Positions 848 through 38,184 of a stretch of 64,000 nt of DNA are shown here, piece after piece. The DNA comes from Azolla caroliniana (taxonomy: Eukaryota > Plantae > Polypodiophyta), in NCBI GenBank assembly GCA_043228905.1, contig JBHGNT010000010.1, positions 11,780,001 through 11,844,000 of the forward strand, written 5' to 3'. The first letter of the stretch is position 1, and each line of letters starts with the position of its first letter. The notes under the pieces are model-generated. The model searched no databases and was not told the DNA's origin. It worked only from the letters and a program-made list of their open reading frames with translations. The position numbers were made by a program, and so were the translations under genes.

Positions 848-3595
848 ATGAGTGAAGATTCACCGTTCTCGATTGAAGAATATTGTTTGTCATCAGACTC
901 TTCGTTTTCTACTGAAGAATATTGTCTGTCGACAAACTCACCCTTTTCTATTGAAGAATATTGTCTGTTGACAGACTCGCCATATTCTATTGAAGAGTAT
1001 TGTGTGAACTCATCTTCACCTACAACGAATATGAATAATGACACATGTGAAGAGTTCTCTATTGAAGAATACGATATTAATAAAGATACGGAGAATGAAG
1101 GCAGTGCCAATGAAACATCGAATATCATGGGCAATGGTCACAACAGAGAATTGGATAGTAACAAGGTTACACCAACTTCTATGCAGGAAGAGAAATCTGG
1201 AAGCCCTATGCATATTAGAAGAATCCCACGAAGAATTCTTCTGGCTAGATTTAACTTGGTGACATCTAATAAACAGATTGGATTTGATGTCAAAAAAATA
1301 TGTTGTGCTCGTGGTTGTATGTCTATGATTGGAAAATCAAAGTTGCGAGAATTAAGGCGATATTATTTTTCGATGACTGGTGATGAGCAAGACACTTACC
1401 TCGGGTCAAATATGCAACTAGTGTCTGACAAATGTACGGGGATCAAAGTATCATTCGAGTATTATATCTTCCGTGCGTGACAGATATGTAGAGTTGCATT
1501 CAAAATTGCGTTATGTGTTAGTAACATGCGGCTACATAGACTACAAGAACATCTACTTATGCTCAATTGTAAAGAGGTTCCAAGTATGAAAGGTGCAATT
1601 GGAAGATATGCTATTGGTTGGATGAAAACTTACTTTCAGTTAAATTGTGAAGTAATGCCCACTACAGGTAGGATGCACCTTTCTGATAATTACACACGTC
1701 AGGAAGTTTATGATGTCTATCGTTCTGATATGGTGGGCTCACGTAATAAGTCTGTCACATATAGCCAATTCACAAGACTATGGAGAGCTCGGTTTTCAAA
1801 TGTTATCATTCCACGTAAAGTACACATGGGGTATTGCTCCATTTGTGCAAATCTTAAAAGTTTGGCTAAAGGTGCAAAGACATCAATGGAAAAGGATATG
1901 AGTAAGAAGTTACTACAAGAGCATCGTGAGGCACAATCGTTAGAACGAAAGAAGGTGATGCATTATAGAGAGAAGTGTTTGAAGAGGCCCGAACAATACA
2001 TGTGCTTAATGATAGATGGCATGGACCATAAGAAGACGTGCTTGCTGCATATGCGGAGGCTCCCCAAAGACGTCAATGATGAGTGCCTTGTTCAAATGCA
2101 CTTGGTGGGATGCTTGGCTTATAATAGGTCAGTTGGACCTCACGTCTTCATTACATACCCCAATGTTCACAATGAACCTAACCTAACAGTTACAGTGATT
2201 CACCGAGTTTTGATGTCTGGGGGCCAACCTTTCCCCCCTGTTCTATACATTCAATTGGAGAATACTACTAGAGAGAACAAAAATTCAACTGTGTTTGGCT
2301 ATCCAAGTATGGTGGTCAACCAAGGATTGTTTAGGAAAGTGAAAGTCAATTTTCTTTTGGTTGGCCACGCACATGATCATATAGATCAGATGTTTAGCCA
2401 TGATGCTTTCACATTACCTAAACTATTTGATGTCATTTGTGATGCATATACACCACGCCCAAAAGTGTTACACTCAAAGGAGGTATATGACTTTAAGAGA
2501 TATATATTAGATGGGGGTGTTGGGAATGTTAAAGTGCTTGCCCAGTTAAACAATATAAGCTTCAATCACATTTTTATGATAAAGAAAAATGAAATAAGTG
2601 GTTCTACACTTTTGTATGCTAAACAATATTCATCTTCTACAACATGGGAACCTGAAGGTGGTTGCCAGTTATTACTTTGTATGCCGAGTACAATTGTCCA
2701 TGGAGCTAAGCAAATGCCAATTGAGAAGAAAGGACAGTTGCAGAGTGACTTGGTATTGGAACAAAAACGGTTATGGCTCCAAGCCTTAGAAGAAAAAAGA
2801 AAGCATATTAAGGCCGCCAAGAAATATGCCACACATCAAGACACGTCATGGTGGGATGTATTTTATAGTGATCAAAAAGGAATTATAGACAATTGTGTAT
2901 TTGGTGATAATTGGAATTTGGAAACGCTATTCACATGGTCGCTGCAGCACGATCGTGTAAATAGAACTCCGGAGCAACCAGCAAATGCGATTAATGACAG
3001 TTTGGTCCATCCACAACAAAGAGACATTTATGTGGGACCAAGGATGACCAAAGCAGCCGAAGGTAGATGGCAAGGCAATTTGCAAGAGCTCACGGCGGGG
3101 ATGTTGATTGCAACGCCGACTGATGAGAATTCACATGGCCACCAATTTTGGGTTGGTAAAATTCTAGAAGTGCTAATGCATGAAATAGAAAACACTATCA
3201 AGTCTATAAACATTCATTGGTACAACACTAGAAGTGCAAATGCTTTTACAGGTAAGTATACATTGGAGATGATTGAATGCCCAACAAGAAGGGGAGGTAG
3301 GAGGAAGCGAAACATTTGTAAGACCTCTACCCTTGATATCTCTGATGTGGATATCATTGTGTACGACTTCACACTTACAAAAGCCGGATGATTAAGGAAG
3401 TCAACAATGGATATAATAAAAGAAAAATTACCAGGTCTACAAGGTGGCTCGAGTCAAAGGCAAATGAGATCTGCTACATATAATCTAGAGTCAAACCATT
3501 TGGTTTATGACGAAGATAATGCACTGATTGGTACATCCGAGGATGACGAGGAGGAATCGTCATTGTATATTAGTTATAGTAGTGATTCTCCGTAA
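848..3595 (+). pseudogene. Sola-like (DUF7869-type) DDD transposase, ~915 codons, broken by two in-frame TGA stops
   Basis: ORFs 848-1480, 1526-3391 and 3407-3595 share one frame and are separated only by TGA at 1478-1480 and 3389-3391 (read-through YIFRA*QICRVAF and TKAG*LRKSTMD). Motifs MIDGMD, LYIQLENTTRENKN and FLLVGHAHDHIDQMFS resemble the D...DN-x-x-x-NKN...GH-x-x-x-x-D signature of Sola-type transposases. The family assignment is from memory, not a search. Confidence 0.7.
860..1015 (+). repeat. 39-bp coding tandem repeat, 4 copies (13 aa, S-P/S-F/Y-S-I/T-EEYC)
   Basis: SPFSIEEYCLSSD / SSFSTEEYCLSTN / SPFSIEEYCLLTD / SPYSIEEYCVNSS, plus a degenerate fifth copy FSIEEY near 1052. Confidence 0.9.
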
Positions 3596-8580: not shown

Positions 8581-8808
8581 ATCTCAAAGAATTACAATGA
8601 CTTGTTCTCAGATAATGACGAGCTAGAAAACGCCATGTCTAGGCTTCCTTGTGTGGCTCCCCCCATATTCTTACGGGGGTAACACATGGCATGCCTATGG
8701 ATAGGAACACACCACCAGCTGCCGAGAAAGGCGAATCCAACATCCATTATTTCGTTTTCCAACAGCCCGGACATTATGCCACTCAATGTCATGAACACAT
8801 GACCATTA

Positions 8809-8881
8809 TGGCGTCACCCGGACTTGAACCTCGAACCTTGTAATTCATACTTGAAAACCTCAACCATTAAGATAGCTTATT
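8809..8881 (-). other. tRNA-shaped Pol III A-box/B-box module in LTR U3 (also 13245-13317 on -, and 34987-35059 on +)
   Basis: The minus strand reads TATCTTAATGG-33 nt-GGTTCAAGTCC-GGGTGACGCCA, which matches tRNA positions 8-73. The acceptor stem does not pair. Confidence 0.55.
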
Positions 8882-8944
8882 GTTATATGAAACAATAAAA
8901 GCTACTTCTTGTATTACATTGATTATTGTAAAAACTCTAGATTA

Positions 8945-9041
8945 TTCTAGAATGTTCTAGAATGTCCTAGAGCATTCTAGGTCTAGAACATTCTAGAACA
9001 TTCTAGAAATCTCTAAGCTATTCTATAGGAACCTATAAATA
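8945..9041 (+). promoter_or_regulatory. Heat-shock-element array and TATA box in the chromovirus LTR (repeated at 13381-13477)
   Basis: TTCtaGAAtgTTCtaGAA (8945-8962), GAAcaTTCtaGAAcaTTCtaGAA (8986-9008) and TATAAATA (9034-9041). Confidence 0.7.
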
Positions 9042-9828
9042 AGCGCATACATGTATTCTCAAATCAATTCGAATCAAACTGTTAGAACCAAGGATAAAAG
9101 ATAGAGTGATGGAAGAAGGATAGAGAAGAATGGATGTATAAGATAGAGAAAGAAAGAGAATGGATACAAGATATGTAATGAGAGCTACGTGTATGGTTGC
9201 TTCGTCGTCACATCAAGACTACCCGACCATGTGCTAAGCTTGACTATCAACGCTTAGGTCCTTTTGTCATCACGGCGCAGATTAATGATGCAACATTTCG
9301 TCTTAACCTTCTTGCACATATGCGGCTTCACCCTGTCTTTCATAGCTCTCTTTTGGAACCTTGCCACACCTCTTTAATTCCTGATCGTGTCGTGCCACCA
9401 CCGCCTTCTGTACAACTTGTGGACGGCCCCGAATACGAGGTAGCTGCTATTCTCGATTCTAAGATTGTGCGCAATAAGCTTTATTATCTAGTTGATTGGC
9501 TTGGTTATCCTCCGAGTGATCGCACTTGGGAACCCATCGATAACGTTTGTAATGCTGAAGCTCTGGTCAACGACTTCCATCGTCACTATCCAAACAAGCC
9601 CGGCCCAACAATGTTAACGCCAACTTCCACTCGGCGTTCTCGAACCAGGGATAGTGTCATGAACACATGACCATTATGGCGTCACCCAGACTTGAAGTTG
9701 ACAACTGGGTGTTCTAACTTGTACTAGGGCTGAGAAAACTCTACTAACATGCTTGGAAGAAATGGAACCCACACTAGGTTGTACATATCTAGGGTTGTCC
9801 AACCAAATGGCTCCTATTTTGGCCGGAC

Positions 9829-10992
9829 TTATTCGTTTGACTCCTCTTCTAATTGGCTTAGGACTTCAAATTTATTGGACAAGGGTGGATTATTCATAAT
9901 ATTAGATTCACTAACTACTTCTAAAATGTTGGACTCATTTTTATTGTCATAGTGAATTTGATTTACCTGACGTCTCGGCCTACGGGAGCAATGAATGGCT
10001 ATATGTCCTGGACCTCCACAATATAAGCACAAATGGTTTGCTCGACGACGTTGCTTCTCTTCTTCTGACAACGGTCCTCGTCGTTGAGTCATATCGATCT
10101 CCATGGGTGTAGGACTATCCATTGGGACTGGACTACGTGTTTGCCTTGGAGTTGGAGCAGGGCTATACATTTGCCTTGGGGATGATTGCGCCGTTACTGA
10201 TGCAGAAGTTGGTGTGAATCTAGATCTTGTTATTTGTTGTTGTCGCTCACATCGACGCTCAAAAAGGTGATTATCACACCATATTGCTCGACTAATAGCT
10301 TTTGTAAGTGACCTTGGATCCTCGGGGAAGGTAAGAAGTAAGTCTTTGACATCACTACGAAGGCCTGAACGGAATTGCTCCATTAGGGCTTGTTCATCCC
10401 AAGGAATATCGCTTGCGATGAGGCGGAAATTGGCAGCATATGTTGAAGCTGGTTGATCACCTTGACGAAGTGTACGAATCTTGTTGATAGTTGTTCTCGC
10501 CCCATCAGTATCTCCGAAACAAGCCTTAAATTCCTTGATAAATTCCTCGAAATTATTCAGTAGAGGAGAATTGGTCTCTAGCAATGGAGCAAACCACGAC
10601 AACGCTATGCCAGTCAATAAAGTGCCCACTAGCCCGACTCGTGATGCATCTGTTGGATAACGTGCGGGATGCATTTGAATCACCAACCGTACTTGATTCA
10701 AAAAACCTCGGAAATGCGCCCTCGACCCATCAAATTTAGCTGGGAGGCTAATTTTGGGCTCCTTGATAAGTCCCTGACCTTCAACCCTTTGTTGTTGTAA
10801 CACGACGATTATCGACTCTAACTGTTGCACTCGTCGCGTGAACTCCTCTTGTTGTTGTTGCTTCTCTATAGTAACCTTTTGTAGATCCCCAAGTAGACGT
10901 TGATTCTCTACTTCAAGAGATGCGAACTTGGATTTAAGGTTCTCCATTTCCGCAACAAGGGTGAGATATTCTTCTGAGTTAATGGCAGCCAT
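9829..10992 (-). CDS. Intact chromovirus Gag (387 aa, capsid plus CCHC knuckle), inverted relative to its element
   Basis: Open ORF from MAAINSEE containing EPKISLPAKFDGSR, LRQG, TPMEID and CLYCGGPGHIAIHC. Confidence 0.85.
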   Translation of the reverse strand: MAAINSEEYLTLVAEMENLKSKFASLEVENQRLLGDLQKVTIEKQQQQEEFTRRVQQLESIIVVLQQQRVEGQGLIKEPKISLPAKFDGSRAHFRGFLNQVRLVIQMHPARYPTDASRVGLVGTLLTGIALSWFAPLLETNSPLLNNFEEFIKEFKACFGDTDGARTTINKIRTLRQGDQPASTYAANFRLIASDIPWDEQALMEQFRSGLRSDVKDLLLTFPEDPRSLTKAISRAIWCDNHLFERRCERQQQITRSRFTPTSASVTAQSSPRQMYSPAPTPRQTRSPVPMDSPTPMEIDMTQRRGPLSEEEKQRRRANHLCLYCGGPGHIAIHCSRRPRRQVNQIHYDNKNESNILEVVSESNIMNNPPLSNKFEVLSQLEEESNE

Positions 10993-11049
10993 GGTTTCAG
11001 GATGGTTACAAAGGAGGATAAGAGAGAGAGGATGGTTACATAGCAACAA

Positions 11050-12374
11050 TTGCGCCAAGTGGGAGGCAAGGAGGACCTTTTCTTATTTGCAGTATCAGTG
11101 ACACCTTCTAGTGTCACTCAAGGGAATTCAGACATCCAAATTCCCAAAAAATATCAAGACTATGCTGATGTTTTCGACAAAGTCAAAGCTAGTGTTCTTC
11201 CAAAGCATCGGCCGTACGACTGTCCTATTGATCTCCAACCAGGAAAAGAGCCTCCGTGGGGTCCGATTTACAATTTATCACCCACTGAGCTTGAGGTTCT
11301 TCGAGAATACATCGAGGAAAATCTTGCACATGGTTATTCGACATTCAAAGTCTCCAGCTGGTGCTCCTATCTTTTTTGTGAAGAAAAAGGACGGCTCCTT
11401 TCGTTTGGTCGTGGACTATCGAGGCTTAAATAAAGTCACCATAAGGAATACGTATGCTTTACCTTTAATCTCCAATCTCTTAGAACGCATTGGTGGGGCA
11501 AAGAATTTTACCAAAATTGATCTAAGGGGTGCATATAATCTTGTTCGAATTCGGCCGGGAGATGAGTGGAAAACAGCATTTCGTACTCGGTATGGTCATT
11601 TCGAGTATCCAGTCATGCCTTTCGGGCTCACAAATGCACCTGCCGTATTCCAACATATGGCAAATGACATCTTCCGGGATTTCTTGGATATTTTTCTAAT
11701 CATCTACCTAGATGATCTATTGATTTACTCTAAAACACAGGGGGAGCATGATATACATGTGCGGCAAGTACTTGAACGCCTAAGGAAGTATGGTCTTTAC
11801 GCCAAACTTGAGAAATGCAGTTTTGATTGCAAACAAGTCGAATTTTTGGGATACACTATTTCATCCCAGGGTGTTTTCATGGACCCGGCAAAAGTCCAAA
11901 CAATATTGGAATGGAAACCCCCATGCTCAGTTCGGGATGTCCAGTGTTTCCTCGGATTTGCGAACTTCTATCGCAAATTCATACATAATTATTCAAGCAT
12001 TGTGTTGCCCCTTACTCAACTCACCAAGAAAAATCAAGCATTTTTTTGGAGTATCGAAGCGGACAAGGCTTTTACGCAGCTGAAAGAGGCATTCACATCA
12101 GCACCCATCCTAGCACATATTGATCCTGAAAAACCATTTACTATTGAGGCGGATGCATCAGACTTTGCATTGGGGAGTATCCTATCGCAACCAGGCGAGG
12201 ACGGGTAGATACATCCAGTCGCGTTTCACTCGAGAAAGTTTACTGTTTCGGAGATAAACTATGAGGTGCATGACAAGGAGTTACTAGCTGTGGTCGACTC
12301 ATTCGAGCAATGGCGTCATTTTCTAGAAGGATCACCTCATCAGATTATCATTTATAGTGATCATAAAAATCTCT
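11050..12374 (+). pseudogene. Chromovirus reverse transcriptase and partial RNase H
   Basis: [49 protein letters not shown] and EADASDFA. Frameshift near 11335, stop at 12206-12208, and a deletion junction to the integrase after DHKNL. Confidence 0.9.
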
Positions 12375-13238
12375 TGCAAACTCTCTTCGGCTTATCATCC
12401 ACAAACTGACGGACAAACAGAGCGCACAAATCAAACGCTCGAGCAATATCTTCGATGTTTCATTAGTTATCAACAAGATGATTGGAGTAAAATTTTACAT
12501 CTTGCCGAGTTTGCATACAACAACACGGTCCACTCTTCTACCAAAGTTACACCTTTCTTTGCCTACATCGGCAACCACCCTCGATGGTGCATATTGGATC
12601 TTCCCGAGGTGTCACGAAACCCTAGTGCAGCGCATCACCTCCATCGACTACAACAAATCCAGTTCGAGTTATCGTCACATCTTCAGAAAGCGCAAGCACA
12701 CCATAAGACCAATGTCGATCGACATCGTCTTAAGTCTCCGTTTAAGGTTGGTGACCGTGTATGGTTGCTTCGTCGTCACATCAAGACTACCCGACCGTGT
12801 GCTAAGCTTGACTATCAACGCTTAGGTCCTTTTGTCATCACGGCGCAGATTAATGATGCAACATTTCGTCTTAACCTTCTTGCACATATGCGGCTTCACC
12901 CTGTCTTTCATAGCTCTCTTTTGGAACCTTGCCACACCTCTTTAATTCCTGATCGTGTCGTGCCACCACCGCCTTCTGTACAACTTGTGGACGGCCCCGA
13001 ATACGAGGTAGCTGCTATTCTCGATTCTAAGATTGTGCGCAATAAGCTTTATTATCTAGTTGATTGGCTTGGTTATCCTCCGAGTGATCGCACTTGGGAA
13101 CCCATCGATAACGTTTGTAATGCTGAAGCTCTGGTCAACGACTTCCATCGTCACTATCCAAACAAGCCCGGCCCAACAATGTTAACGCCAACTTCCACTC
13201 GGCGTTCTCGAACCAGGGATAGTGTCATGAACACATGA
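12375..13238 (+). pseudogene. Integrase C-terminal half plus chromodomain (its 3' part is duplicated at 9188-9696)
   Basis: [33 protein letters not shown] and chromodomain motifs. Confidence 0.9.
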
Positions 13239-15028
13239 CCATTATGGCGTCACCCGGACTTGAACCTTGAACCTTGTAATTCATACTTGAAAACCGCAAC
13301 CATTAAGATAGCTTATTGTTATATGAAACAATAAAAGCTACTTCTTGTATTACATTGATTATTGTAAAAACTCTAGATTATTCTAGAATGTTCTAGAATG
13401 TCCTAGAGCATTCTAGGTCTAGAACATTCTAGAACATTCTAGAAATCTCTAAGCTATTCTATAGGAACCTATAAATAAGTGCATACATGTATTCTCAAAT
13501 CAATTCGAATCAACACCAGTCTTTAGCTCTCATTACATATCTTGTATCCATTCTCTTTCTTTCTCTGTCTTATACATCCATTCTTCTCTATCCTTCTTCC
13601 ATCACTCTATCTTTTATCCTTGGTTCTAACACTCAAGGGCAAAGGCCCCGCCGTCAATACAATTATGGCGGAAGTTCAGCAAGTTATGACAAGGCAGCTA
13701 ACTAAAAATGTTGATTGGACCACGCAAGATGAGATATGTAAGACAGCCCAAGCATGTGTCGAAAAAGCAAACGAAGCCAATACGGAGCGCATGCGGCAGG
13801 AGTCCGCAAACAATGTGGGGCCATTAGAGGAAGACATAATATCCCTAGATCCCATATGGCAAGCACTGGCACACTGCGAAATAACACTAACCATGGAGAA
13901 ACTACTTCAATTAGTTCCACGGTTCCGTCAAGCCATCGAGGATCGCATAACGGGTAGACCTGAGGGCAGCGTCTTCGCCAATTTTATGGACGTTAGCAAC
14001 GGACGAACGGTGGTGGATGACCACAATCCAACTATTAAGTTGGTATTACACGGTCAGGAAATCACAGGATGCGTAATTGACAGGGGCTCTAGCGTCAATG
14101 TAATTAACGCAAAGACATGCGAACAATTGGGAATTTCAGAATGGGAAACTTGCCTGTTTTAGCTTCACATGGCAGATACCCACTCAGTTCGGCCTTTAGG
14201 CTTAATCTGAAAATTAGGCATCTCGGCACTAGTCCTCGCCCTCAGCGCTCCGGGAGCGTATCCAATGCTGCTTGGTAGACCTTGGCTTCGTTCGGCAAAT
14301 ATCAAACAAAGCGATTTGGAGTGGATGAAGTTTCGAAGAGCGACGGGTGAATGCAATCTGGTTTTTGCCAACATTTGTCCCTCTTTGGCGCATGCCGGTG
14401 GATGTGCGGTTTGGTGGGGTGGATGTCCTGGAGAAAACCGGCCTTAGCTGGAATCAAGGGATTAGGCGCATGAATCGGCGCTTACGCGTGAGCACACAAA
14501 CTAACACTTTGTGCATAACTAGGAATAGGCCGGCATAATGTGAATATCCTAGGTAGAATATATTAATAGTTTAGTAAATCGAAGCGGATTTCTGACCGAA
14601 GGGGCAAAGAATAAAGGAGATGTGACCAGGATGCAACGGTCCCTCCCCGACGGCCTGTAAAAAAGGAAGGGGAGAAGAGTGAGATTAATATTGAGAACGA
14701 CACGTTGTTAGACTGGGAACCGAGCTCTCTCCTCCTTTGTCATTGTTCACTGTGGGTTTTGGGTCGGTTGCCTCTGCTTCGAGGAAAGCCCAAGTGCCTC
14801 TGGTAGAGGCTCCACTATGTGCGTGCGTGGGTGTGTGATCTCTTGTGTTGGGTCTGTTCCCGGCTCGCCGGTTGTAATCTTGTCATCGGTATAATTATTC
14901 TTATTATTGGATTTAATTCTCCTATTTTTCTGTCTCTCAATGTTTTCCTGTGTGGTTCCCTTCATTGTCTGGTAGCTGCGCGTCTCTCTTCGTTCTGTAC
15001 AACTAATCAGAAGCGGGTATTCGTCGGT

Positions 15029-28843: not shown

Positions 28844-28860
28844 TGTCGAGACTCGTGAGT

Positions 28861-28880
28861 GGGGGGGGGGGGGGGGGGGG

Positions 28881-28944
<64 letters not shown>
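28861..28944. repeat. G23 homopolymer fused to a (GA)n microsatellite
   Basis: Read directly; lies within the chromovirus-2 LTR. Confidence 0.95.
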
Positions 28945-29196
28945 AATGGAAATGAGATTATATTATGAGGAAACAAGGTTACAAAGAGTGGGCTAAGGCT
29001 AAAAACTGGTGTCGAACTGAATGAGTTGTGATGAATGAATAGACACCTATTTATAGATCCTTATGGAGTATTCTAGAATGTTCTAGAATATTTTAGATAT
29101 TTATGATATTTAATATAATCATGGAATATCCGAGAATGTTCTAGAATACTCTAAATATCTTGTGATAACTAATAATATATTTATTAAATTATATAT

Positions 29197-32100
29197 TGTT
29201 CAGAATTAAGCTCAACTTGGTCTAGTGTGTGAACTCACCTTGAGAGTGAATAGACACTCCAACGGTCAAGAGTCACCATTATGTCACCACTTTGTATTCT
29301 AGCATTTAGTATCAGTCATAGAATCATATTCTATGACACATAATTTATGAGCTTTCACATTCCTCATGCTCCATGAATCTTGTAGTTAATGAAGAGAGAG
29401 GGTTACTATATAAAGCACCCTCCTCCCACCTTGTATAATGTTGAGTCTTACTCATTGTCTCTCTCATACACACACAGTTCATATCTATTCCGCTGCACAG
29501 AATCCATCTCTTGATTCTTTACATGGTATCAGAGCGACTTGGTAGCTCGATCTAGCCCATCCGCGTGTGTTGTGTCCTACGCCGACGACCAAGAACCGGC
29601 TCATCGCTATCGTAACCTCTCTACATAGCTCACATTCGAAGAGAGAAGAAGAAGAAGAAGAAGAAGAAGAAGAATCGACATAATTGTTAGGAAACAAGTC
29701 CCTCCGGATGGGAAGTGAGAAGAACAGTGTCAGCCAAAACCGGATGACAAGTACCCGGCTACGGAAGACCCGGTGAGAACCGGATGACGAGTACCCGGCA
29801 AGAGCCAGATGGTGAAGCCCCGGTGAGAACTGGATGTGGAGTACCTGGCAACGGAAGACCCGGTGAGAACCGGATGATGTGTGCCCGGCAAGCGCCGGAT
29901 GATGCAGGCCCGGTGAGGAGTGCTCACCGGATGAAGGGACATATTCGTAAATATGTTTCTAAGAGTCCATCGGGGCTATATTTGTAAATAGCCGAAAAGT
30001 CATATTAGTATAAATATGACTTAGGACAAACTTTAGTTTGTTGTTGTTATTCTTGTTGGTGCAAGATTAGAGCATGTAACTGTGTACAGAGAGAGAGAGA
30101 GAGAGAGAAAGAGGTCGTTGCCTCTATTGTAACCGCCGCCTGTGGCGAAGATAGCAAGCTCGAGGTCATTGCCTCGGTGCTTCACTATTGTACATTCTAA
30201 TATAGTGATAGTTTGCAGTCTGTGGGTTGTCGTGGTTTTTCCCTAGTTTGGGTTTTCCACGTTAACATCCTGTGTACTCTTCTCTTCACTGTGTTGTGCG
30301 TTCATTACCCGTTTACTGTGTTTGATTCTAGGCTCGGTTGTGGCCGAGCGCTGTTCATCGGGAGCGTGTATTCTTGTCAATAATGAATACTCAAATGGGG
30401 AGCACTCTCCCTACCGAGAAGTTGGATCGAAACAACTTCGCATCTTGGGAGTACAAGATGCACCAATACCTTGTCGGACAAGGCTATTGGAGCTACATCA
30501 AAGGAGCGCACGAAGACCGACCCGTCGATACGGCTCCCGGATACGCGACATGGGAGCAAGCCGCAAGCCACGTGATGTATTGCTTGGAAAAATGTATTCA
30601 CGATCACATGCTCGGCTCCATTTGCGAAGCCAAGACGCCAAAGGAGGCATGGGAAAATCTACAAAAGATTTTCGTGGCGAACACAACCGCAAGAAGGCTT
30701 CTACTCCGTCAAGAGTTGAACAACATTCAACAACGGGACATGTCCATCACGACATACTCTACACGCACTCTAACGGAGGAAGAGGACACGGATGAGCAAG
30801 AGGACGATTCGTCCAAGGAAAAGGCGGATGAGGTCCGACCTACGACAACAACTCCCAATTTCGGCCGCCAAACGAAAGCCAGCGAGGAACCTTCGCAAGA
30901 AGGGGGAGCTTCCACTCCGGCCCGAGCCGTCAAAACGCAACCAAATGCGGATATTGTGGAAAGCTCAGCAACCACGAAGAAGAGTGCCAAAAGAAGATGT
31001 GTGAATCGGCTTCCACAAGCCAACAACTCACGAATTATGCGCACAATTCCGACTACGAAGAGTATAGTGGAATGTACGGGCACAACTCCGACCGAGGCGG
31101 AATGTTCATGATGAAACATAGAGCAAACTCTATGTTGGCCTCTACCTCAAATAGTGCCCTCAATCTGGAGGATGTATGGTTTGTTGACTCCAGAGCCTCA
31201 AACCATATGACATCTCATAAAGAATGGTTTCTCGAACTTCGAGAGCGACCCGGTTATGTTGAAACCGGAGATGACACGGCGCACCCGATTCGGCATATCG
31301 GAAATGTTCCGTTCGGCGAAAGAGGTAAGCAAACATACATTAAAAATGTCTTGCATGTTCCCACCATCACGAAGAACTTGCTCTCGGTCGGCAAAATGGT
31401 TGAGCAAGGGATGCAAGTACGACTCAACCCAGAAGGGTGCTTCATCGAAAAAGAGGGCTGAATCATCACGCGCGGAAGAACAGAGGGCCGGATGTTCATT
31501 CTCGTTCACACGAGATGAAATCCGCCATGTTTGCAAAAAGCACGAAAGCCGACTCTGACATAGAGCTATGGCACAAGCGAATCAGCCACGTCAATCTCAA
31601 CAAACTCAAAGCAATAAAATCGAAAGGAGTCGTCATTGGACTCCCGACATTCAAAGAGAAGGAGATTGAAGGTGTATGCAAAGCGTGCCAATTCAACAAG
31701 CAACACTGACACCCATTCCCGAAAGAGTAGAACGTGAGCAAAGGTCTACTCGACGTAGTCCATTCCGACGTATGGGGACCGGCGGAAACGGCTACATTCC
31801 GCGGATGCCGATTTTACGTGCTCTTCATCGACGACTTCTCCAAGCACACGTGGCTCTATCTGATGCAGTAAAAGAGTGAAGTGTTCGGACACTTCCAAAG
31901 GTTTAAAAACGAAGTCGAAAAAGCCACTAGTCATCATGTACGATGCCTTCGATCGGATGGCGGTAAGGAGTACTTCTTGGACGATTTCACGGCGTATCTC
32001 CGAAAGGAAGGAATTCGGCGAGAATTCACTTGCTGACACACTCTGCAACAAAACGGAGTAGCCGAGCGCAAAAATCGGCACATCCTCGAAGTAGCGCAGG

Positions 32101-34979
32101 CCATGATGAACAAGAAGCATATACCCAAGTCATATTGGTCCGAAGCTGCAAATACGATCATCTACCAAATGAACCGGTGCACAACATCTAGAGTGCATGA
32201 GGTCACTCCGCACGAAAAATACTTCGAAAAGAAGCTGGATATTCGACACGATAGCATACGTGCACATCCCCGACGAGAAGCGTCAAAAGCTTGACCCGAA
32301 GTCGTAGAAATGTATCCTCGTAGGATACTCACTGGAGCAAAAGGGGTACAAGTGCTACAACCTCTCAACTCGAAAATCTCGAGTAAGTCGAGATGTTGTA
32401 TTTGACAAGTCCGCATCCTGGTATGAACCAGAGACAACTTCGACTCCGACTCCGCTCGACCCAGAATCCGCCGAACAAGAGATAGAGGATGAAGATCGCC
32501 TTACACACATGTTCGAATAAAGTCCGATCACGACCCGATTGAGCAGAGCACAAAAGCCTTTGAGCGATCAAAGCACATCACGACCTAGCCCGAAGATAGA
32601 CAAAGGCAAGGCGAAAATGTTGGAATACGAAGATGATCGCTTCGACGACGATGAGTTGACTCACTCACTCGACAGTGAGTTTGGCGGCTTCGATGTACCA
32701 ATCGGAGCTAAGAAAGCCCTCATCTCTGCAAATGAAAAGCTTTGTCGCTCCACCCATGAAAAGAATCCAATCAGCCGATTCGGCTACAACAACTACATGG
32801 CATATCACTATGCCTTTATGATGAAGGTGGCGGTAGTATGCAAGCCGGAAACATTTTCCGAAGCAGCCAAGGATCCGCGATGGATCAAAGCCATGAACGA
32901 GGAGATGCAAGCACTACACAAGAACGAGGTGTGGGATCTCATTCCCACCTCACCACACAAAAAGGTGATCGGATGCAGATGGATTTACAAAGTGAAGTAC
33001 AACTTCGAGTGTTCCGTCAACCGCTACAAAGCGCGACTTGTAGCGAAAGGCTACGCACAAACACACGGAGTTGACTACGAAGAGACCTTTTCCCCGGTGG
33101 CAAAGATGATGACAGTACGGACCATAATTACGCTTGCCGCGGCGAAAGGGTGGCACCTCCATCAAATGGATGTCAAGAACGCCTTTCTACAAGGCGAATT
33201 AGAAGAGGTGTACATGATACAACCACCCGGCTTCAACTCGAGCACCCATCTGAAAGTTGTATGCCGACTCAAAAAGCCACTCTACGGCCTGCCACTCTAC
33301 GGCCTCAAGCAAGCATCGCGTGCTTGGCATTCAAAGATAACGCAATATCTTCATCAAATTGGCTTCTGTAAGTCAAAATCGGACAACTCCCTCTACATAC
33401 GAACGATTCCGCAAGTCCGATCGTCATCATCTTATATGTGGATGACCTAGACATTGGAGGTGAGCATCTCGTCGAAATCAATAAGGTCAAATCCCTCCTT
33501 TCCGAGAAGTTCAAGATGACGGACATGAAGGAGCTCCACTACTTCCTCGGCATCGAGATAATTCGAACTCCGGCCAGAATCATGATCTCTCAATGGCACT
33601 ACATCCTCAACTTGTTATACAAGTTCGGTATGGCTGACTGCAAATCCGCGGCAACTCCGCTCAATCGCAATCTCAAACTAGATGTAAACTCCGGCACTAA
33701 AGCGTGTGAGTCGACTCAGTATCGGCAACTCATCGGGAGTCTCATCTACCTCACGATCACACGACCCGATCTCAGTTATCCAGTCGGTCTCTTTAGCCAA
33801 TTCATGCAAACACCACGTGATACTCACCTGGATTGCACTAAGCGAGTTCTACGATACATGAGCGGCACAATGAATTGCGGCATCCTCTACAAGACCGCGA
33901 TGCCAATACGACTCGAGGGGTACACAGACGCCGATTGGGCCGGCTACAAAGCCGATAGAAGATCAACCTCCGGATTTGTTTTTTCCCTCGGCAGCGGAGC
34001 AATATCATGGAGCAGCAAAAAGCGACCAACCGTCGCTCTTTCGAGCACAGAGGCGGAATACAGGGGCACGGCAGGATGGCTCAAAGGGATACTCAAGGAC
34101 CTGGGCGTACCTATCAAGGATCCGACTTCCCTTTACTAAGACAACATGAGCAGTATCTATCTGGCTCGGAACCCGGTGTTCCACGCGCGAACAAAGCACG
34201 CACTATCACTACATCCGAGAGCTCGTTCTAGCTGGCGATGTCGACCTACAACACATTAGCACCAATCTCCAAACAGCCGACATGTTCACTAAAGCCTTAG
34301 GAGCCGACAAGCTATGGCAATTCATGAACAATCTCGGATTGACGATCCCTGACCTGCCAAGCTTGAGGGGGAGTACTGAAGAAACTACGCAATAACACGT
34401 GGATTCCGCAGCTGCGCAACGAAGTCGCGAAGAGCCGATCTACCGCGCAAAGCCGCGAAGAAAGACACAAGCCCAAGCACAGACTTCGCAACTATGCACA
34501 ACACAAGCTGGAGCATGGATTCCGCAACTCCGCATAAATGCGAGTCAACATGAGTCAACGCGGACTCCGGAACGCGAGTCGAAGCGGATTTCGGATACCG
34601 TCTGAAACCGACCTGACTTGAGCTTGAGGGGGCATGTTGAGAATCAAGCTCAACTTGGTCTAGGGTGTGAACTCACCTTGAGAGTGAATAGACACTCCAA
34701 CGGTCAAGAGTCACCATTATGTCACCACTTTGTATTCAAGCATTTAGTATCATTCATAGAATCATATTCTATGACACATAACTTATGCGCTTTCACATTC
34801 CCCATGCTCCATGAGTCTTGTAGTTAATGAAGAGAGAGGGTGTCTATATAAAGCACCCTCCTCCCACCTTGTATAATGTTGATTCTTACTCCTTGTCTCT
34901 CTCACACTCTCTATCTCTCATACACACACACAATTCATATCTATTCCGTTGCACAAAATCCATCTCTTGATTCTTTACG
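29197..34979 (+). mobile_element. Near full-length degenerate copia family B copy 2 with both LTRs (29197-29523 and 34635-34979) and TSD TATAT
   Basis: TATAT at 29192-29196 and 34980-34984. Perfect PBS TGGTATCAGAGC at 29524-29535. gag starts at 30383 with an internal deletion, followed by protease, integrase, RT, RNase H (YTDADWAG) and PPT. Confidence 0.93.
29685..30379 (+). mobile_element. Solo LTR of the Tnt1/Tork-like family with TSD ATAAT
   Basis: TGTTAGG...TTGTCA, with ATAAT at 29680-29684 and 30380-30384. Homologous to the LTR at 7032-7638. U3 has ~40-bp repeats CCGGATGA...CCGGTGAGAA at 29740-29935. Confidence 0.92.
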
Positions 34980-37900
34980 TATATCATATATGTTATTATA
35001 ATGGTTAAAGGTTTAACATATAGACCAAGACGTCTTGGGCTCGAATCCTTGTAAGGCCAAAATGTATGTCTTCATGATATTATCCCCCCTTTTCGATGAC
35101 GAGTTCCACGAGTCGGAAGACAAGATTTCGAACTTGGCTTATGTGGATATTTGTTGTGAAATGCAGCAACCATTTCGGAGGCATTAGCAAGATTCTCGAG
35201 AGGTTCCCATGTTCGATCATTAGGTGTATAACCTAACCAGTCAACCAAATAATACAGTTTGTTGCGAACGATCTTGGAGTCGAGAATGGTAACAACTTCA
35301 TATTCGGAGCCATCCAAAACATCGATTGGAGGTGGGGGAGATGTAAGACAGCCTGGAATAGAGCTGGTTGTGTACGGCTCCAAAAGTGAAACATGGAAGA
35401 CCGGGTGAAGATGCATATGAGGGGGAAGATCAAGGCGAAATGCCACATTATTGATCTTACCTGATATCACATATGGGCCAAAACGTTGATAATCCAATTT
35501 GTAGCAAGGTCAGGTTGTTTTAATGCGCGACCTTGTAAAAGCCATACTCGATCTCCCACTTGAAACGTAATCGATGAATAACGTCAATGATGGTCGGCAA
35601 CCTTCTTTTGAGTGTTTTGAGCATCACATAAATGGTGCAAAAGGATATCTTGAACTTCTTGGAGTCGGACAAGCCGATCTTTAGCAGTTGGGTTTGTCAG
35701 GAGTTTGGGATGTTCAAACACAGTCCAACGAGGATGGTACCCAATGTTTGCAAAAAATGGGGAATATCCAGTAGAAGAATGTTCTAAGTTGTTGTAAACA
35801 AATTCCGCCAAATGTAATAGATCAACCCAATCATCTTGTTGATAGTTGACAAAACAACGAAGATATTGTTCTACTGTTTGGTTGGTGTGCTCACTCTGCC
35901 CGTTAGTTTCTGGATGGTAGCCGGAAGAGAGTTTGCAAGAAGTATGTAAGAGTTTGAAGATGTGTCGCCAAAATTTTGAGATGAACTGGGGACCCCGATC
36001 ACTGATAATATCATCGGGAAGACCATGATGCCGAAACACCTCTCGCATGAGTAACTCGGTTGTCTCTTGGCTCGTAATGGCCTTTGTGCAAGGAAGAAAA
36101 TGTGCCATCTTGGTAAAACGATCTACTACCATGAGAATAGAGTCAAAACCCTTGGAAGGTGGTAGATCCGTAATGAAGTCCAATGAAATAGATTTTCATG
36201 GACTCTCAGGAATAGGCATTGGTTGTAATAAACCCATATGGATGATGTCGAGGTTTTTTGGATCGGCAACATGTATCACAACTATGAACATAATCCGTAA
36301 CAAAATGGCGAAGTTGTGGCCACCAATACCTTCGAGAAATTAGCGCCAAAGTCTTGTGGATGCCGAAATGTCCAGCCATTGGTGTGTCATGACATTGTTG
36401 CAAGACTTGGAGTCGAGAAGGAACATCAAGCACATATAAGAGATTTTGTCGAAAAAGTAAACCATCATGCCAATTGAACTAGTTGTAGTCTTGATGAGGA
36501 TTTTGAGATTGTGAACAAGAAGCACGATCTAGGATAATATGGTTCAGAATGTCTTGGGCGAATTCATCGGTCTCAATATGCTCCCAAATGGAGTCCAGAA
36601 GACACGAATCCCCGGGTGTGTCTATAGCATGGAATGCCATTAGTCGTAGATGGCCAGGACCCAAGAAGATTTGCTTCTGACTTTCAAATGCAGCCTCTCC
36701 TAGTTGAAGTTCCATATACGAACGCCGAGATAAAGCATCTACTTTTCCTTGTTGTGTCCCAGGGCGATATAGAATTACAAAATCAAAACGAGTTAAGAAT
36801 TGCGCCCAACGTGCTTGTTGACAACTCAAGACTCGAGCACTTTGGAAGTACGTTAGATTTTGTGATCATTATAGACAATGATTTGTTGAGACGAACCCTC
36901 TAGAAAATGACGCCATTGTTGAAAAGAATCCACAATGGCAAGAAGCTCTTTGTCGTGAATCTCATAGTTGATTTTTGCAGCTTCGAATTTCCATGAATGA
37001 AAAGCCACAGGGTGCAGGTGGCCATCATTGCTAATCTGGGATAATACACTTCCTAGTGCTAAGTCCGATGCATCAACTTCGAGTATAAAGCACTTCAATG
37101 GATCAACATGCATCAAAATTGGTGCGGATGTAAATGCTTGCTTTTATCCTTCAAATGTAGAGTTTGTATTTATACTCCACATAAATGGTTGATTCTTTTG
37201 TGTCAATTGAGTGAGGGGCAATACGATCTTTGAATAATCTTTGATGAACTTGCGATAAAAGTTTGCGAACCCCAAAAAACATTGTACATCTCGCACAGAC
37301 TGTGGTGTTTGCCAATCCAAAGTTGTTTGAACCTTTGCTGGATCCATAGAGATGCCATGTGAAGACACTATATGTACCCCAAAAATTCCACTTGACGTTG
37401 GTCGAAATTGCACTTCTCCAATTTTGCATAGAGACCATATTCACGCAACCGTTGCAATGCTTGTCGAACATGTATATCATGATCCTCTTGAGTTTTTTAC
37501 TAGATAGATATCATCCAGGTAAACTATGACGAAAATATCGAGGAAATCTCAAAAAATGTCATTTGCCATATGTTGGAAAACTGTTGGTGCATTTGTGAGA
37601 CCAAATGGTATCATTGTATACTCAAAATGACCATAGCAAGTATAGAAAGCAGTCTTCCATTCATCCCCAGGATGAATTCGAACAAGATTTGTAAGCACCT
37701 CGAAGATCTAACTTTGTCAAATACTTAGCTACATTGAGGCGTTCCAGAAGGGGGCTCTAAATCAATGGTAGAGCATATCAGTTTCGAATAGTTACTTTAT
37801 TCAATCCTCGATAATACACGACCAGACGAAGTGAACCATCTTTCTTCTTAATGCAAAATATGGGTGCACCGCCAGGAGATCTTAAATGCTAGATAAACCC

Positions 37901-38184
37901 ATTCGTCAAGTTATCATCGATATATTCCCGAAGAACCTCTAGCTCCGTGGGCGAAAGGTTATAAATTGGCCCCCATGGAGGCTCCTTTCCAAGCTGCAAA
38001 TCAATCGGGCAATCATATGATCGATGCTCTAGTAGTTTATTGGCCTTTACCTTATCAAACATATCAAAGAATTTTATATATTTCTTCGGTAGTTGGACCC
38101 CCAATTCTTGTGAGCTCGATGTGGGAGTTGCTAAAACTGCGAACACCAACATGTTTTCCTTCCGCCTTCCTCACGTAACTGATG

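Follow-up and report, generated by a model that had tools for sequence, protein, structure and literature searches.

Antisense tRNA-type promoter modules in the outer U3 of Gypsy retrotransposon LTRs of Azolla caroliniana

Results

Two chromovirus families in the window

The window analysed here, a 64-kb stretch of a 523-Mb assembly, contains LTRs of two Gypsy families, referred to as family 1 and family 2. Family 1 is represented by a rearranged element at 8787–13631, bounded by a target site duplication (CTCAA at 8782–8786 and 13632–13636), the 5' half of which carries an inversion, a duplication and a deletion. Its 5' LTR (U3 and the start of R; 8787–9077, plus strand) is followed by an inverted segment with U5 and the self-priming primer-binding site (PBS; 9066–9187, minus strand), the inversion beginning at the stretch of complementarity between R and PBS; by a duplicated block comprising the 3' end of pol, the polypurine tract (PPT) and the first 42 nt of the LTR (9190–9696, plus strand); and by an inverted gag region (9689–11030, minus strand). 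The pol region (11038–13238, plus strand) encodes reverse transcriptase (RT), the start of RNase H and, beyond an internal deletion, an SH3 domain and a chromodomain (approximately 13002–13154) with Y/W/Y cage residues. The 3' LTR (13223–13631, plus strand) has a TATA box at 13471 and a PBS-complementary stretch at 13503–13514.

Family 2 is a 5'-truncated, minus-strand element, and a copia element (29197–34979, plus strand; target site duplication TATAT) has inserted into its 3' LTR. The start of this LTR (U3) lies at 34980–35079 and the remainder, beyond the copia insertion, at 28844–29196; the PPT occupies 35080–35093 and pol, from RT to chromodomain, 35111–38097 (all minus strand). The 5' LTR is outside the window.

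Pfam models RVT_1, SH3_Tf2-1 and Chromo matched family 1; the chromodomain of family 2 was recognised by tblastn and translation. Both chromodomains carry the aromatic cage (Y..W..Y) by which group I is described (PMC3350952, PMC6317226). Evidence of self-priming comes from a copy of family 1 (L293) with a 12-nt complement of the PBS 32 nt after the TATA box, and from four relatives of family 1 in which an 11–12 nt complement lies 32–33 nt after the TATA box; one further element has no exact match. One 5' junction of family 2 (L089) appears to resemble the start of R. An aromatic-cage chromodomain and self-priming are described for the Tcn1 chromoviruses of mosses and club-mosses (PMC6317226, PMC3350952). 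By chromodomain, cage residues and self-priming, families 1 and 2 are Tcn1-like chromoviruses; the RT tree used below holds only elements of this genome.

In several independent copies the LTR is broken or inverted exactly at the PBS-complementary stretch of R (9066–9187 of the window; L024, L086, L099 and L230:4979–5301), a recurrence that suggests a repeated error of self-primed reverse transcription. Elsewhere in the window, a 636-codon open frame at 1481–3391 contains a DUF7869 domain (E = 4e-38) and bears no relation to the finding described next.

A tRNA-type A box and B box in antisense orientation

Read on the antisense strand, the outer U3 of both families contains an A box and a B box at tRNA-like spacing, the arrangement of a type 2 Pol III promoter. 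A first-pass annotation of the window had reported three such sites (8874–8809 and 13310–13245, minus strand; 34994–35059, plus strand) about 20 nt inside the LTR start. All three are present, each with a gap of 33 nt between A box and B box. With LTR starts at 8787 and 13223 (family 1) and at 35079 (family 2), the modules end 22 nt inside the LTR in family 1 and 20 nt inside in family 2. The module of the family 1 5' LTR spans 8809–8881 (minus strand) and consists of an A box (8874–8864), a 33-nt spacer that includes an AGGT pentamer, a B box (8830–8820) and tRNA positions 63–73 (8819–8809). Its counterpart in the 3' LTR spans 13245–13317 (minus strand; A box 13310–13300, B box 13266–13256), and the family 2 module 34987–35059 (plus strand; A box 34994–35004, B box 35038–35048, with C at tRNA position 54). 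A truncated third copy of the family 1 module (9677–9696, minus strand), with part of the B box and positions 63–73, lies within the duplicated block. The annotation had assigned these sites to two different families. The boxes do occur in both; however, both are related Tcn1-like lineages with homologous LTRs and thus do not count as independent cases.

A relaxed A-N31–34-B pattern matched three times in the window, compared to 0.015 times on average (at most once) in 200 dinucleotide-shuffled versions, a comparison that flatters the sites because the pattern was modelled on them. With tRNA models built solely from 16 tRNA genes of the same assembly, the three sites ranked first to third in the window under a sequence-only model (16.0, 13.3 and 12.0 bits; E 0.0006–0.011) and again under a model that includes structure (14.2, 12.4 and 11.3 bits; E 0.07–0.54). 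Scored by a matrix derived from nine cytosolic tRNA genes, the family 1 module reached 27.9 bits, inside the range of the nine training tRNAs (27.8–34.0), and the family 2 module, changed at position 54, 18.6 bits.

The resemblance does not extend to the fold. ARAGORN called none of the three sites as a tRNA, and the low-threshold Rfam tRNA search that the annotation had recommended returned no match to them at E up to 10. The annotation's remark that the stems do not pair holds for the family representatives: in tRNA register the acceptor arm has 1 of 7 pairs in family 1 and 2 of 7 in family 2, and the remaining stems have 3/4, 3/5 and 3/5 pairs and 3/4, 2/5 and 4/5 pairs, respectively, which is not a cloverleaf. 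On these grounds, and with structure adding 0 bits for the window sites, we rejected a working tRNA gene or a tRNA-shaped RNA; the sites are tRNA-like in sequence motifs, not in fold. The annotation had also stressed a terminal GCCA at tRNA positions 70–73. The sites read as it said, but the emphasis is unsupported: positions 63–73 show background identity (0.30), and GCCA survives in 3 of 11 chromovirus family representatives. A relic PBS was likewise rejected: if the terminal CCA is read as a tRNA tail, the stretch that follows the B box is 8 rather than 11 nt long, and these elements are self-priming.

Other features of these LTRs deserve record. In the family 2 spacer (34999–35037) there is a palindrome of 14 nt, together with a hairpin (5-bp stem, 7-nt loop) that is out of tRNA register. 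Between module and TATA box, families 1 and 2 have in common tandem, hairpin-forming palindromic repeats of TCTAGAA type (8945–9008 and 13381–13444), which resemble heat-shock elements. The LTR of the copia element (29197–29320 and 34635–34760) has a weak antisense A/B-like arrangement with 40-nt spacing; it scores 11.9 bits in most copies and 17.3 in one, and may be chance or a decayed module.

The module among chromovirus families

The chromovirus sample began with 261 sequences, which gave 124 chromodomain matches; an LTR start was called for 93 of these (31 were missed by the purine-tract rule), and the LTRs fell into 18 clusters. Matrix scores were compared to a background of 6,640 windows from 400 kb sampled at fixed positions. 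On the antisense strand of LTR positions 1–120, 17 of the 18 chromodomain-linked clusters exceeded background at p<0.03; the sole negative (C15) is a copy truncated in the module. The sense strand of the same interval gave 2/18, and positions 121–240 gave 0/18 on either strand. Four tRNA-primed Gypsy elements scored as controls (two families with a tRNA-type PBS, which we take to be of tRNA-Met type) had no module.

Comparisons between families used 11 clusters; seven single copies with deletions or duplications in the module were excluded. The A-to-B spacing is 31–33 nt in 9 of the 11 representatives and 35 and 39 nt in the other two, compared to 32–33 nt in host tRNAs and 29–41 nt in identically anchored controls. 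Among chromoviruses, the B box lies anywhere between 5 and 39 nt from the LTR edge. When the second lineage described below is included, all 15 U3 modules are antisense, lie 5–201 nt from the LTR edge and are upstream of the TATA box. Genome-wide, a B box plus GCCA pattern matched 90 times, compared to 7 for a reversed control, the 90 being a mix of tRNA-Val genes, a third LTR family and chance matches. A first look at three module-carrying families gave 843, 518 and 2,330 candidate copies.

Not every family has strong boxes. Those of C9 and C12 score 10.1 and 10.9 bits. In family 2, position 54, an invariant T in tRNAs, is C in all 32 copies sampled by similarity to the window copy; variant copies with T occur, and the family has amplified to hundreds of copies despite the C. 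The site is thus dispensable, or decaying, in some lineages.

The copia element of the window lies 7 nt upstream of the position in the family 2 module that corresponds to tRNA +1, a location in keeping with a landing pad or decoy, attracting other retrotransposons that target Pol III genes. Against this, approximately 30 other copies of the same copia family had their flanks scored and none had a site of at least 15 bits beside the junction; the best flank (L362, 14.7 bits) contained no module on inspection. Of 150 module-bearing LTR matches, 21 end early, and their break points show no clustering of foreign insertions upstream of the module. Attraction of other elements also leaves unexplained why the carrier keeps the boxes. 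We consider this explanation very improbable, on a test that covered one copia family only.

A second Gypsy lineage with the same arrangement

Several of the strongest windows in the background set are LTRs of Gypsy families that lack a chromodomain (N1, N2 and N3). The RT of this lineage is 25–27% identical to that of family 1 and forms a long, separate branch in the RT tree. One member (L242) encodes RT, RNase H and an integrase zinc domain, with no Chromo match among the four open reading frames scanned. Seven regions were examined, and all six elements with LTR pairs have an NCGN target site duplication. NCGN target sites and the absence of a chromodomain are described as the mark of Phygy elements (PMC6317226), and we refer to the lineage as Phygy-like; N3 is assigned to it by shared PBS only.

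N1 carries a tandem pair of antisense modules whose boxes are near-canonical and whose spacers have diverged; N2 and N3 carry one each, and the A-to-B spacing is 32 nt in all four. A link between module and self-priming is excluded, because the tRNA-primed Phygy-like families carry the module too. N1 has, in addition, a sense-oriented A/B module approximately 70 nt after the TATA box (L377 LTR, about 500–560), kept in 25 of the 25 copies found with it.

What is conserved and what is not

Among the 11 chromovirus representatives, pairwise identity is 0.65 for the A box, 0.70 for the B box and 0.73 for the pentamer (tRNA positions 44–48), compared to 0.30–0.36 for the spacer, the acceptor positions and the DNA upstream. 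In identically anchored controls the boxes reached 0.39–0.45 and the pentamer 0.29. The pentamer, with an identity of 0.66 across lineages and 0.69 to host tRNAs, is absent from the scoring matrix, and its conservation is therefore not circular.

The annotation had proposed that boxes be compared with spacer, and the boxes are indeed better kept: in global alignments of six sister pairs, 114/134 box positions are identical, compared to 112/170 spacer positions and 148/240 flank positions (Fisher p = 0.0002; the pairs are not independent). Within families, in copies sampled by other regions, columns with shared variants number 19/192 in boxes and pentamer compared to 38/196 in spacer (p = 0.01); set against spacer and flanks together (71/471, p = 0.08) they are not clearly rarer. 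All these p-values are optimistic, since copy sets and pairs overlap. LTR contigs from a sequencing run labelled as another organism, restricted to contigs at least 80% alike, show differences shared by two or more contigs at six positions of the spacer and one of the B box (62), and at none of the A box.

Terminators behave differently. The distance from B box to the first T4 in chromoviruses is 0, 18, 41, 46, 69, 95, 111, 116, 360 or 389 nt, or T4 is absent; in all four Phygy-like modules it lies inside the LTR, 5–33 nt after the B box. These distances bear on the proposal that the module yields a functional product: a short outward Pol III RNA, antisense to U3 and PPT, such as the annotation had suggested, that would tune reverse transcription, silencing or expression of the element. 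Productive transcription needs both boxes at their proper spacing, and these are kept; T4 is near the B box in the Phygy-like modules and in C7 and C11 (at 0 and 18 nt); and foamy virus LTRs yield Pol III RNAs from A and B boxes (PMC3993851). The T4 that the annotation had placed at 35090–35093 in family 2 is there, and it is kept in 18 of 20 family 2 3' junctions; however, it belongs to the purine tract, which persists for a reason of its own. Family 1, as the annotation had said, has none (in 544 nt downstream of the 3' LTR module). The scatter of distances weakens the proposal in chromoviruses, although the terminator test is itself weak, because 6 of 12 sampled host tRNA genes also lack T4 within 80 nt. 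Against the proposal, too, a transcript from the 5' LTR would enter random flanking DNA, and the transcribed sequence beyond the boxes shows background identity. A functional outward RNA is, in our judgement, unlikely.

Outside the boxes, the best match of a module to any of nine host tRNAs is 16–27 of 48 positions, and the best isotype varies between families; no single donor isotype was found among these nine cytosolic types, many isotypes being outside that set. C8 is an exception to the loss of fold, with an acceptor arm of 7/7 and a score of 28.1 bits with structure compared to 16.1 without. Such features invite a further explanation, use at the RNA level during reverse transcription: the U3 of the genomic RNA could pair with a host tRNA, or minus-strand DNA could mimic a tRNA, and so aid strand transfer. 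Pairing between tRNA and U3 has parallels in HIV-1 U3 and in the two-part primer site of Ty3. The fixed antisense orientation makes the genomic RNA complementary to tRNA, pentamer and exact tRNA spacing are structural features of tRNA, and the acceptor arm of C8 fits as well. But chromoviruses self-prime, as the PBS complements of the five elements above indicate, and the conserved columns are those common to all tRNAs, with no isotype constant between families. The chance that this is the main explanation appears small.

Relationship to a SINE-like repeat

A dispersed repeat of 201–216 nt, with 25 copies 95–98% identical to the query copy (L425–L449; also L138:1860–2025), has in all 25 a tRNA-type head (score 20.6–30.1) and (GA)n on the 5' side, and in 17 of 25 an A-rich tail. 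The combination of tRNA head, short body, A-rich tail and dispersed copies is that of a tRNA-derived SINE. Direct repeats flanking the copies fall within (GA)n runs. In 24 of the 25 the body contains a second, oppositely oriented A/B module (scores 12.9–24.3).

The head is identical to the C8 module at 62 of 73 positions and to that of C4 at 57 of 73; the remaining modules match at 35–45 of 73. For families 1 (35/73) and 2 (40/73) no donor was found. Head, C4 and C8 modules form one clade in the module tree (support 97/98), the inner order of which is unsettled. In the RT tree C1 is sister to C4 (99/96); in the module tree C1 groups with C9. The conflict suggests replacement of modules at the same place: a fresh SINE head may have replaced the module of C4 and C8, or the SINE may have been born from the module. 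Either way, a SINE-like element with a near-identical head has spread recently, which indirectly supports Pol III promoter activity of such modules. Of 12 matches that appeared to place SINE flanks within LTRs, 11 are artefacts, because the C7 reference copy itself contains the SINE.

The annotation's idea of a captured tRNA-derived module gains support from these data: the module appears to be kept by selection on the boxes, and it extends to many more families and to a second Gypsy lineage. Likely sources of the captured modules are the heads of tRNA-derived SINEs. A capture could, of course, leave no more than a neutral relic, a single old SINE or tRNA insertion that hitchhikes in the LTR without present function. 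Because the chromovirus families share ancestry, most of them could go back to one capture; signs of decay are seen in family 2, C9 and C12, and single copies with deleted modules occur. Yet spacer and flanks have fallen to 0.30–0.36 identity while boxes and pentamer remain at 0.65–0.73 with fixed spacing. The same arrangement in a lineage with RT about 26% identical, and the placement of C1 with C9 rather than C4 and of C4 and C8 with the SINE, count against it further. We regard neutral persistence as improbable.

In a different setting, a repeat family carries tandem tRNA-like A/B arrays beside a Helitron-like terminal hairpin (L225:385–500; L405–L424), with 945 candidates at first look. 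An upstream CAA motif, found in 7 of 15 modules and 9 of 30 control windows, was uninformative and was set aside.

Discussion

A mobile Pol III factor site?

A and B boxes are the sites that TFIIIC reads in tRNA genes (PMC13578239). Judged from the alignments, the features retained in the LTR modules are those that TFIIIC reads there, and not fold, isotype or terminator; the module is probably a selected site for Pol III factors, of some function. As to which function, we see roughly an even chance, arguing by analogy, that a captured Pol III promoter is kept as a TFIIIC site that protects the Pol II promoter of the LTR.

The mechanism would be as follows. The antisense A box, variable-loop pentamer and B box of the outer U3 would be retained because TFIIIC and the Pol III machinery recognise them in the DNA, and TFIIIC would bind at the module. 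Because the module lies between LTR edge and TATA box and points outward, TFIIIB would sit upstream of it, on the TATA side. Each LTR would then be laid out as two promoters back to back, that of Pol II facing the element and a tRNA-gene promoter facing outward, and the complex would block heterochromatin, or read-through transcription, from the flank and keep the promoter open. Precedents exist in yeasts: in fission yeast, tRNA genes that retain the A box and assemble Pol III act as barriers to heterochromatin (PMC2040200), and in budding yeast, intergenic Pol II transcription is blocked by Pol III complexes (PMC4228148). The insulator that the annotation had offered as one option fits both the position and the conservation of the module.

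Several points argue against protection of the promoter. The fission-yeast barrier is orientation-independent and so does not, alone, account for modules that are always antisense. In the 3' LTR, such a complex could impede full-length transcription of the element itself; Gypsy families primed by tRNA have amplified with no module; and the conserved pentamer, which lies outside the classical B box, may point to a constraint at the RNA level. The B-box substitution of family 2, the weak boxes of C9 and C12 and the sense module that N1 has after its TATA box also count against this reading. In the literature examined we found no report of barrier activity by plant tRNA genes.

A broader proposal, to which we give somewhat less than an even chance, is that such autonomous LTR retrotransposons have on repeated occasions taken SINE heads into the outer U3 and use them as TFIIIC/Pol III barriers that travel with the element, keeping heterochromatin-seeking elements transcribable, scattering thousands of boundary sites and exchanging modules between LTRs and SINEs. 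It is a puzzle how promoters stay usable in retrotransposons that insert into heterochromatin, and an 11-nt B box in each LTR makes one answer testable by point mutation. If TFIIIC does bind, thousands of LTR copies would be Pol III factor sites, far above the number of tRNA genes, with effects on chromatin boundaries in plants. The module common to an LTR family and a SINE-like repeat is, in addition, a specific example of exchange between SINEs and LTRs, as has been proposed for Cassandra and Helenus.

Comparison with known systems

The closest parallel is Helenus, a group of TRIMs with tRNA-derived LTR sequence in which boxes A and B are conserved and which form no working tRNA; an origin by insertion of a SINE into an LTR has been proposed (Kojima 2024, PMC10886601). 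Helenus and TRIMp3, however, are non-autonomous, noncoding and under about 1.3 kb, whereas the elements described here are 5.3–7.5 kb long with gag-pol and a TATA box. The Helenus promoter is, moreover, proposed to drive transcription of Helenus itself; the U3 module described here faces outward and is thus unable to make genomic RNA. The same paper states that "not a few" Repbase LTRs contain tRNA-like sequence, the analysis in the sections consulted being of TRIMs only, so that the bare occurrence of such sequence in LTRs may not be unique to the elements here. Cassandra and Ajax TRIMs also have a Pol III internal promoter captured in the LTR, but it is of 5S type (A, IE and C boxes), drives the transcript of the element and belongs to non-autonomous elements (PMC10886601).

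Simian foamy virus, an autonomous element, likewise has A and B boxes within its LTRs, in Pol III miRNA cassettes beside a Pol II unit; these cassettes differ in that terminators and hairpin products have been shown by experiment (PMC3993851), whereas no conserved terminator or product is seen here. Yeast tRNA-gene and B-box barriers (PMC2040200) and extra-transcriptional Pol III sites (PMC4228148) resemble the proposed action, the shielding of an adjacent domain by TFIIIC/Pol III assembly, but are fixed host loci; the predicted site would travel in every LTR, and in a plant. As for the carriers, Tcn1 and Phygy of mosses are described by cage chromodomain and self-priming (Tcn1) and by NCGN target sites without chromodomain (Phygy), and the sections consulted of these descriptions (PMC6317226, PMC2864245, PMC3350952) make no mention of tRNA-like or Pol III sequence in LTRs. 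Nor did we find a description of antisense tRNA-type boxes in Tcn1 or Phygy LTRs in the literature covered, a body from which most subscription journals, Repbase entries and the supplements of PMC10886601 and PMC6317226 are excluded.

Ty3, which inserts upstream of tRNA genes (bioRxiv 10.1101/2021.07.27.453949), offers a last comparison: its LTR, too, ends up beside an outward-pointing Pol III promoter. Ty3 targets host genes via TFIIIB, whereas the elements described here bring the promoter themselves and would carry with them the tRNA-gene neighbourhood that Ty3 gains by targeted integration.

One of the 40 listed copies of the family 1 LTR lies approximately 800 nt from tRNA-Arg genes (L025; G000:C4:19570875–19573992), which at this frequency is probably chance. 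Genes for tRNA-Lys, -Ile, -Val and -Arg occur in this genome in tandem arrays that include numerous variant copies (L031–L039, L048, L275 and L276).
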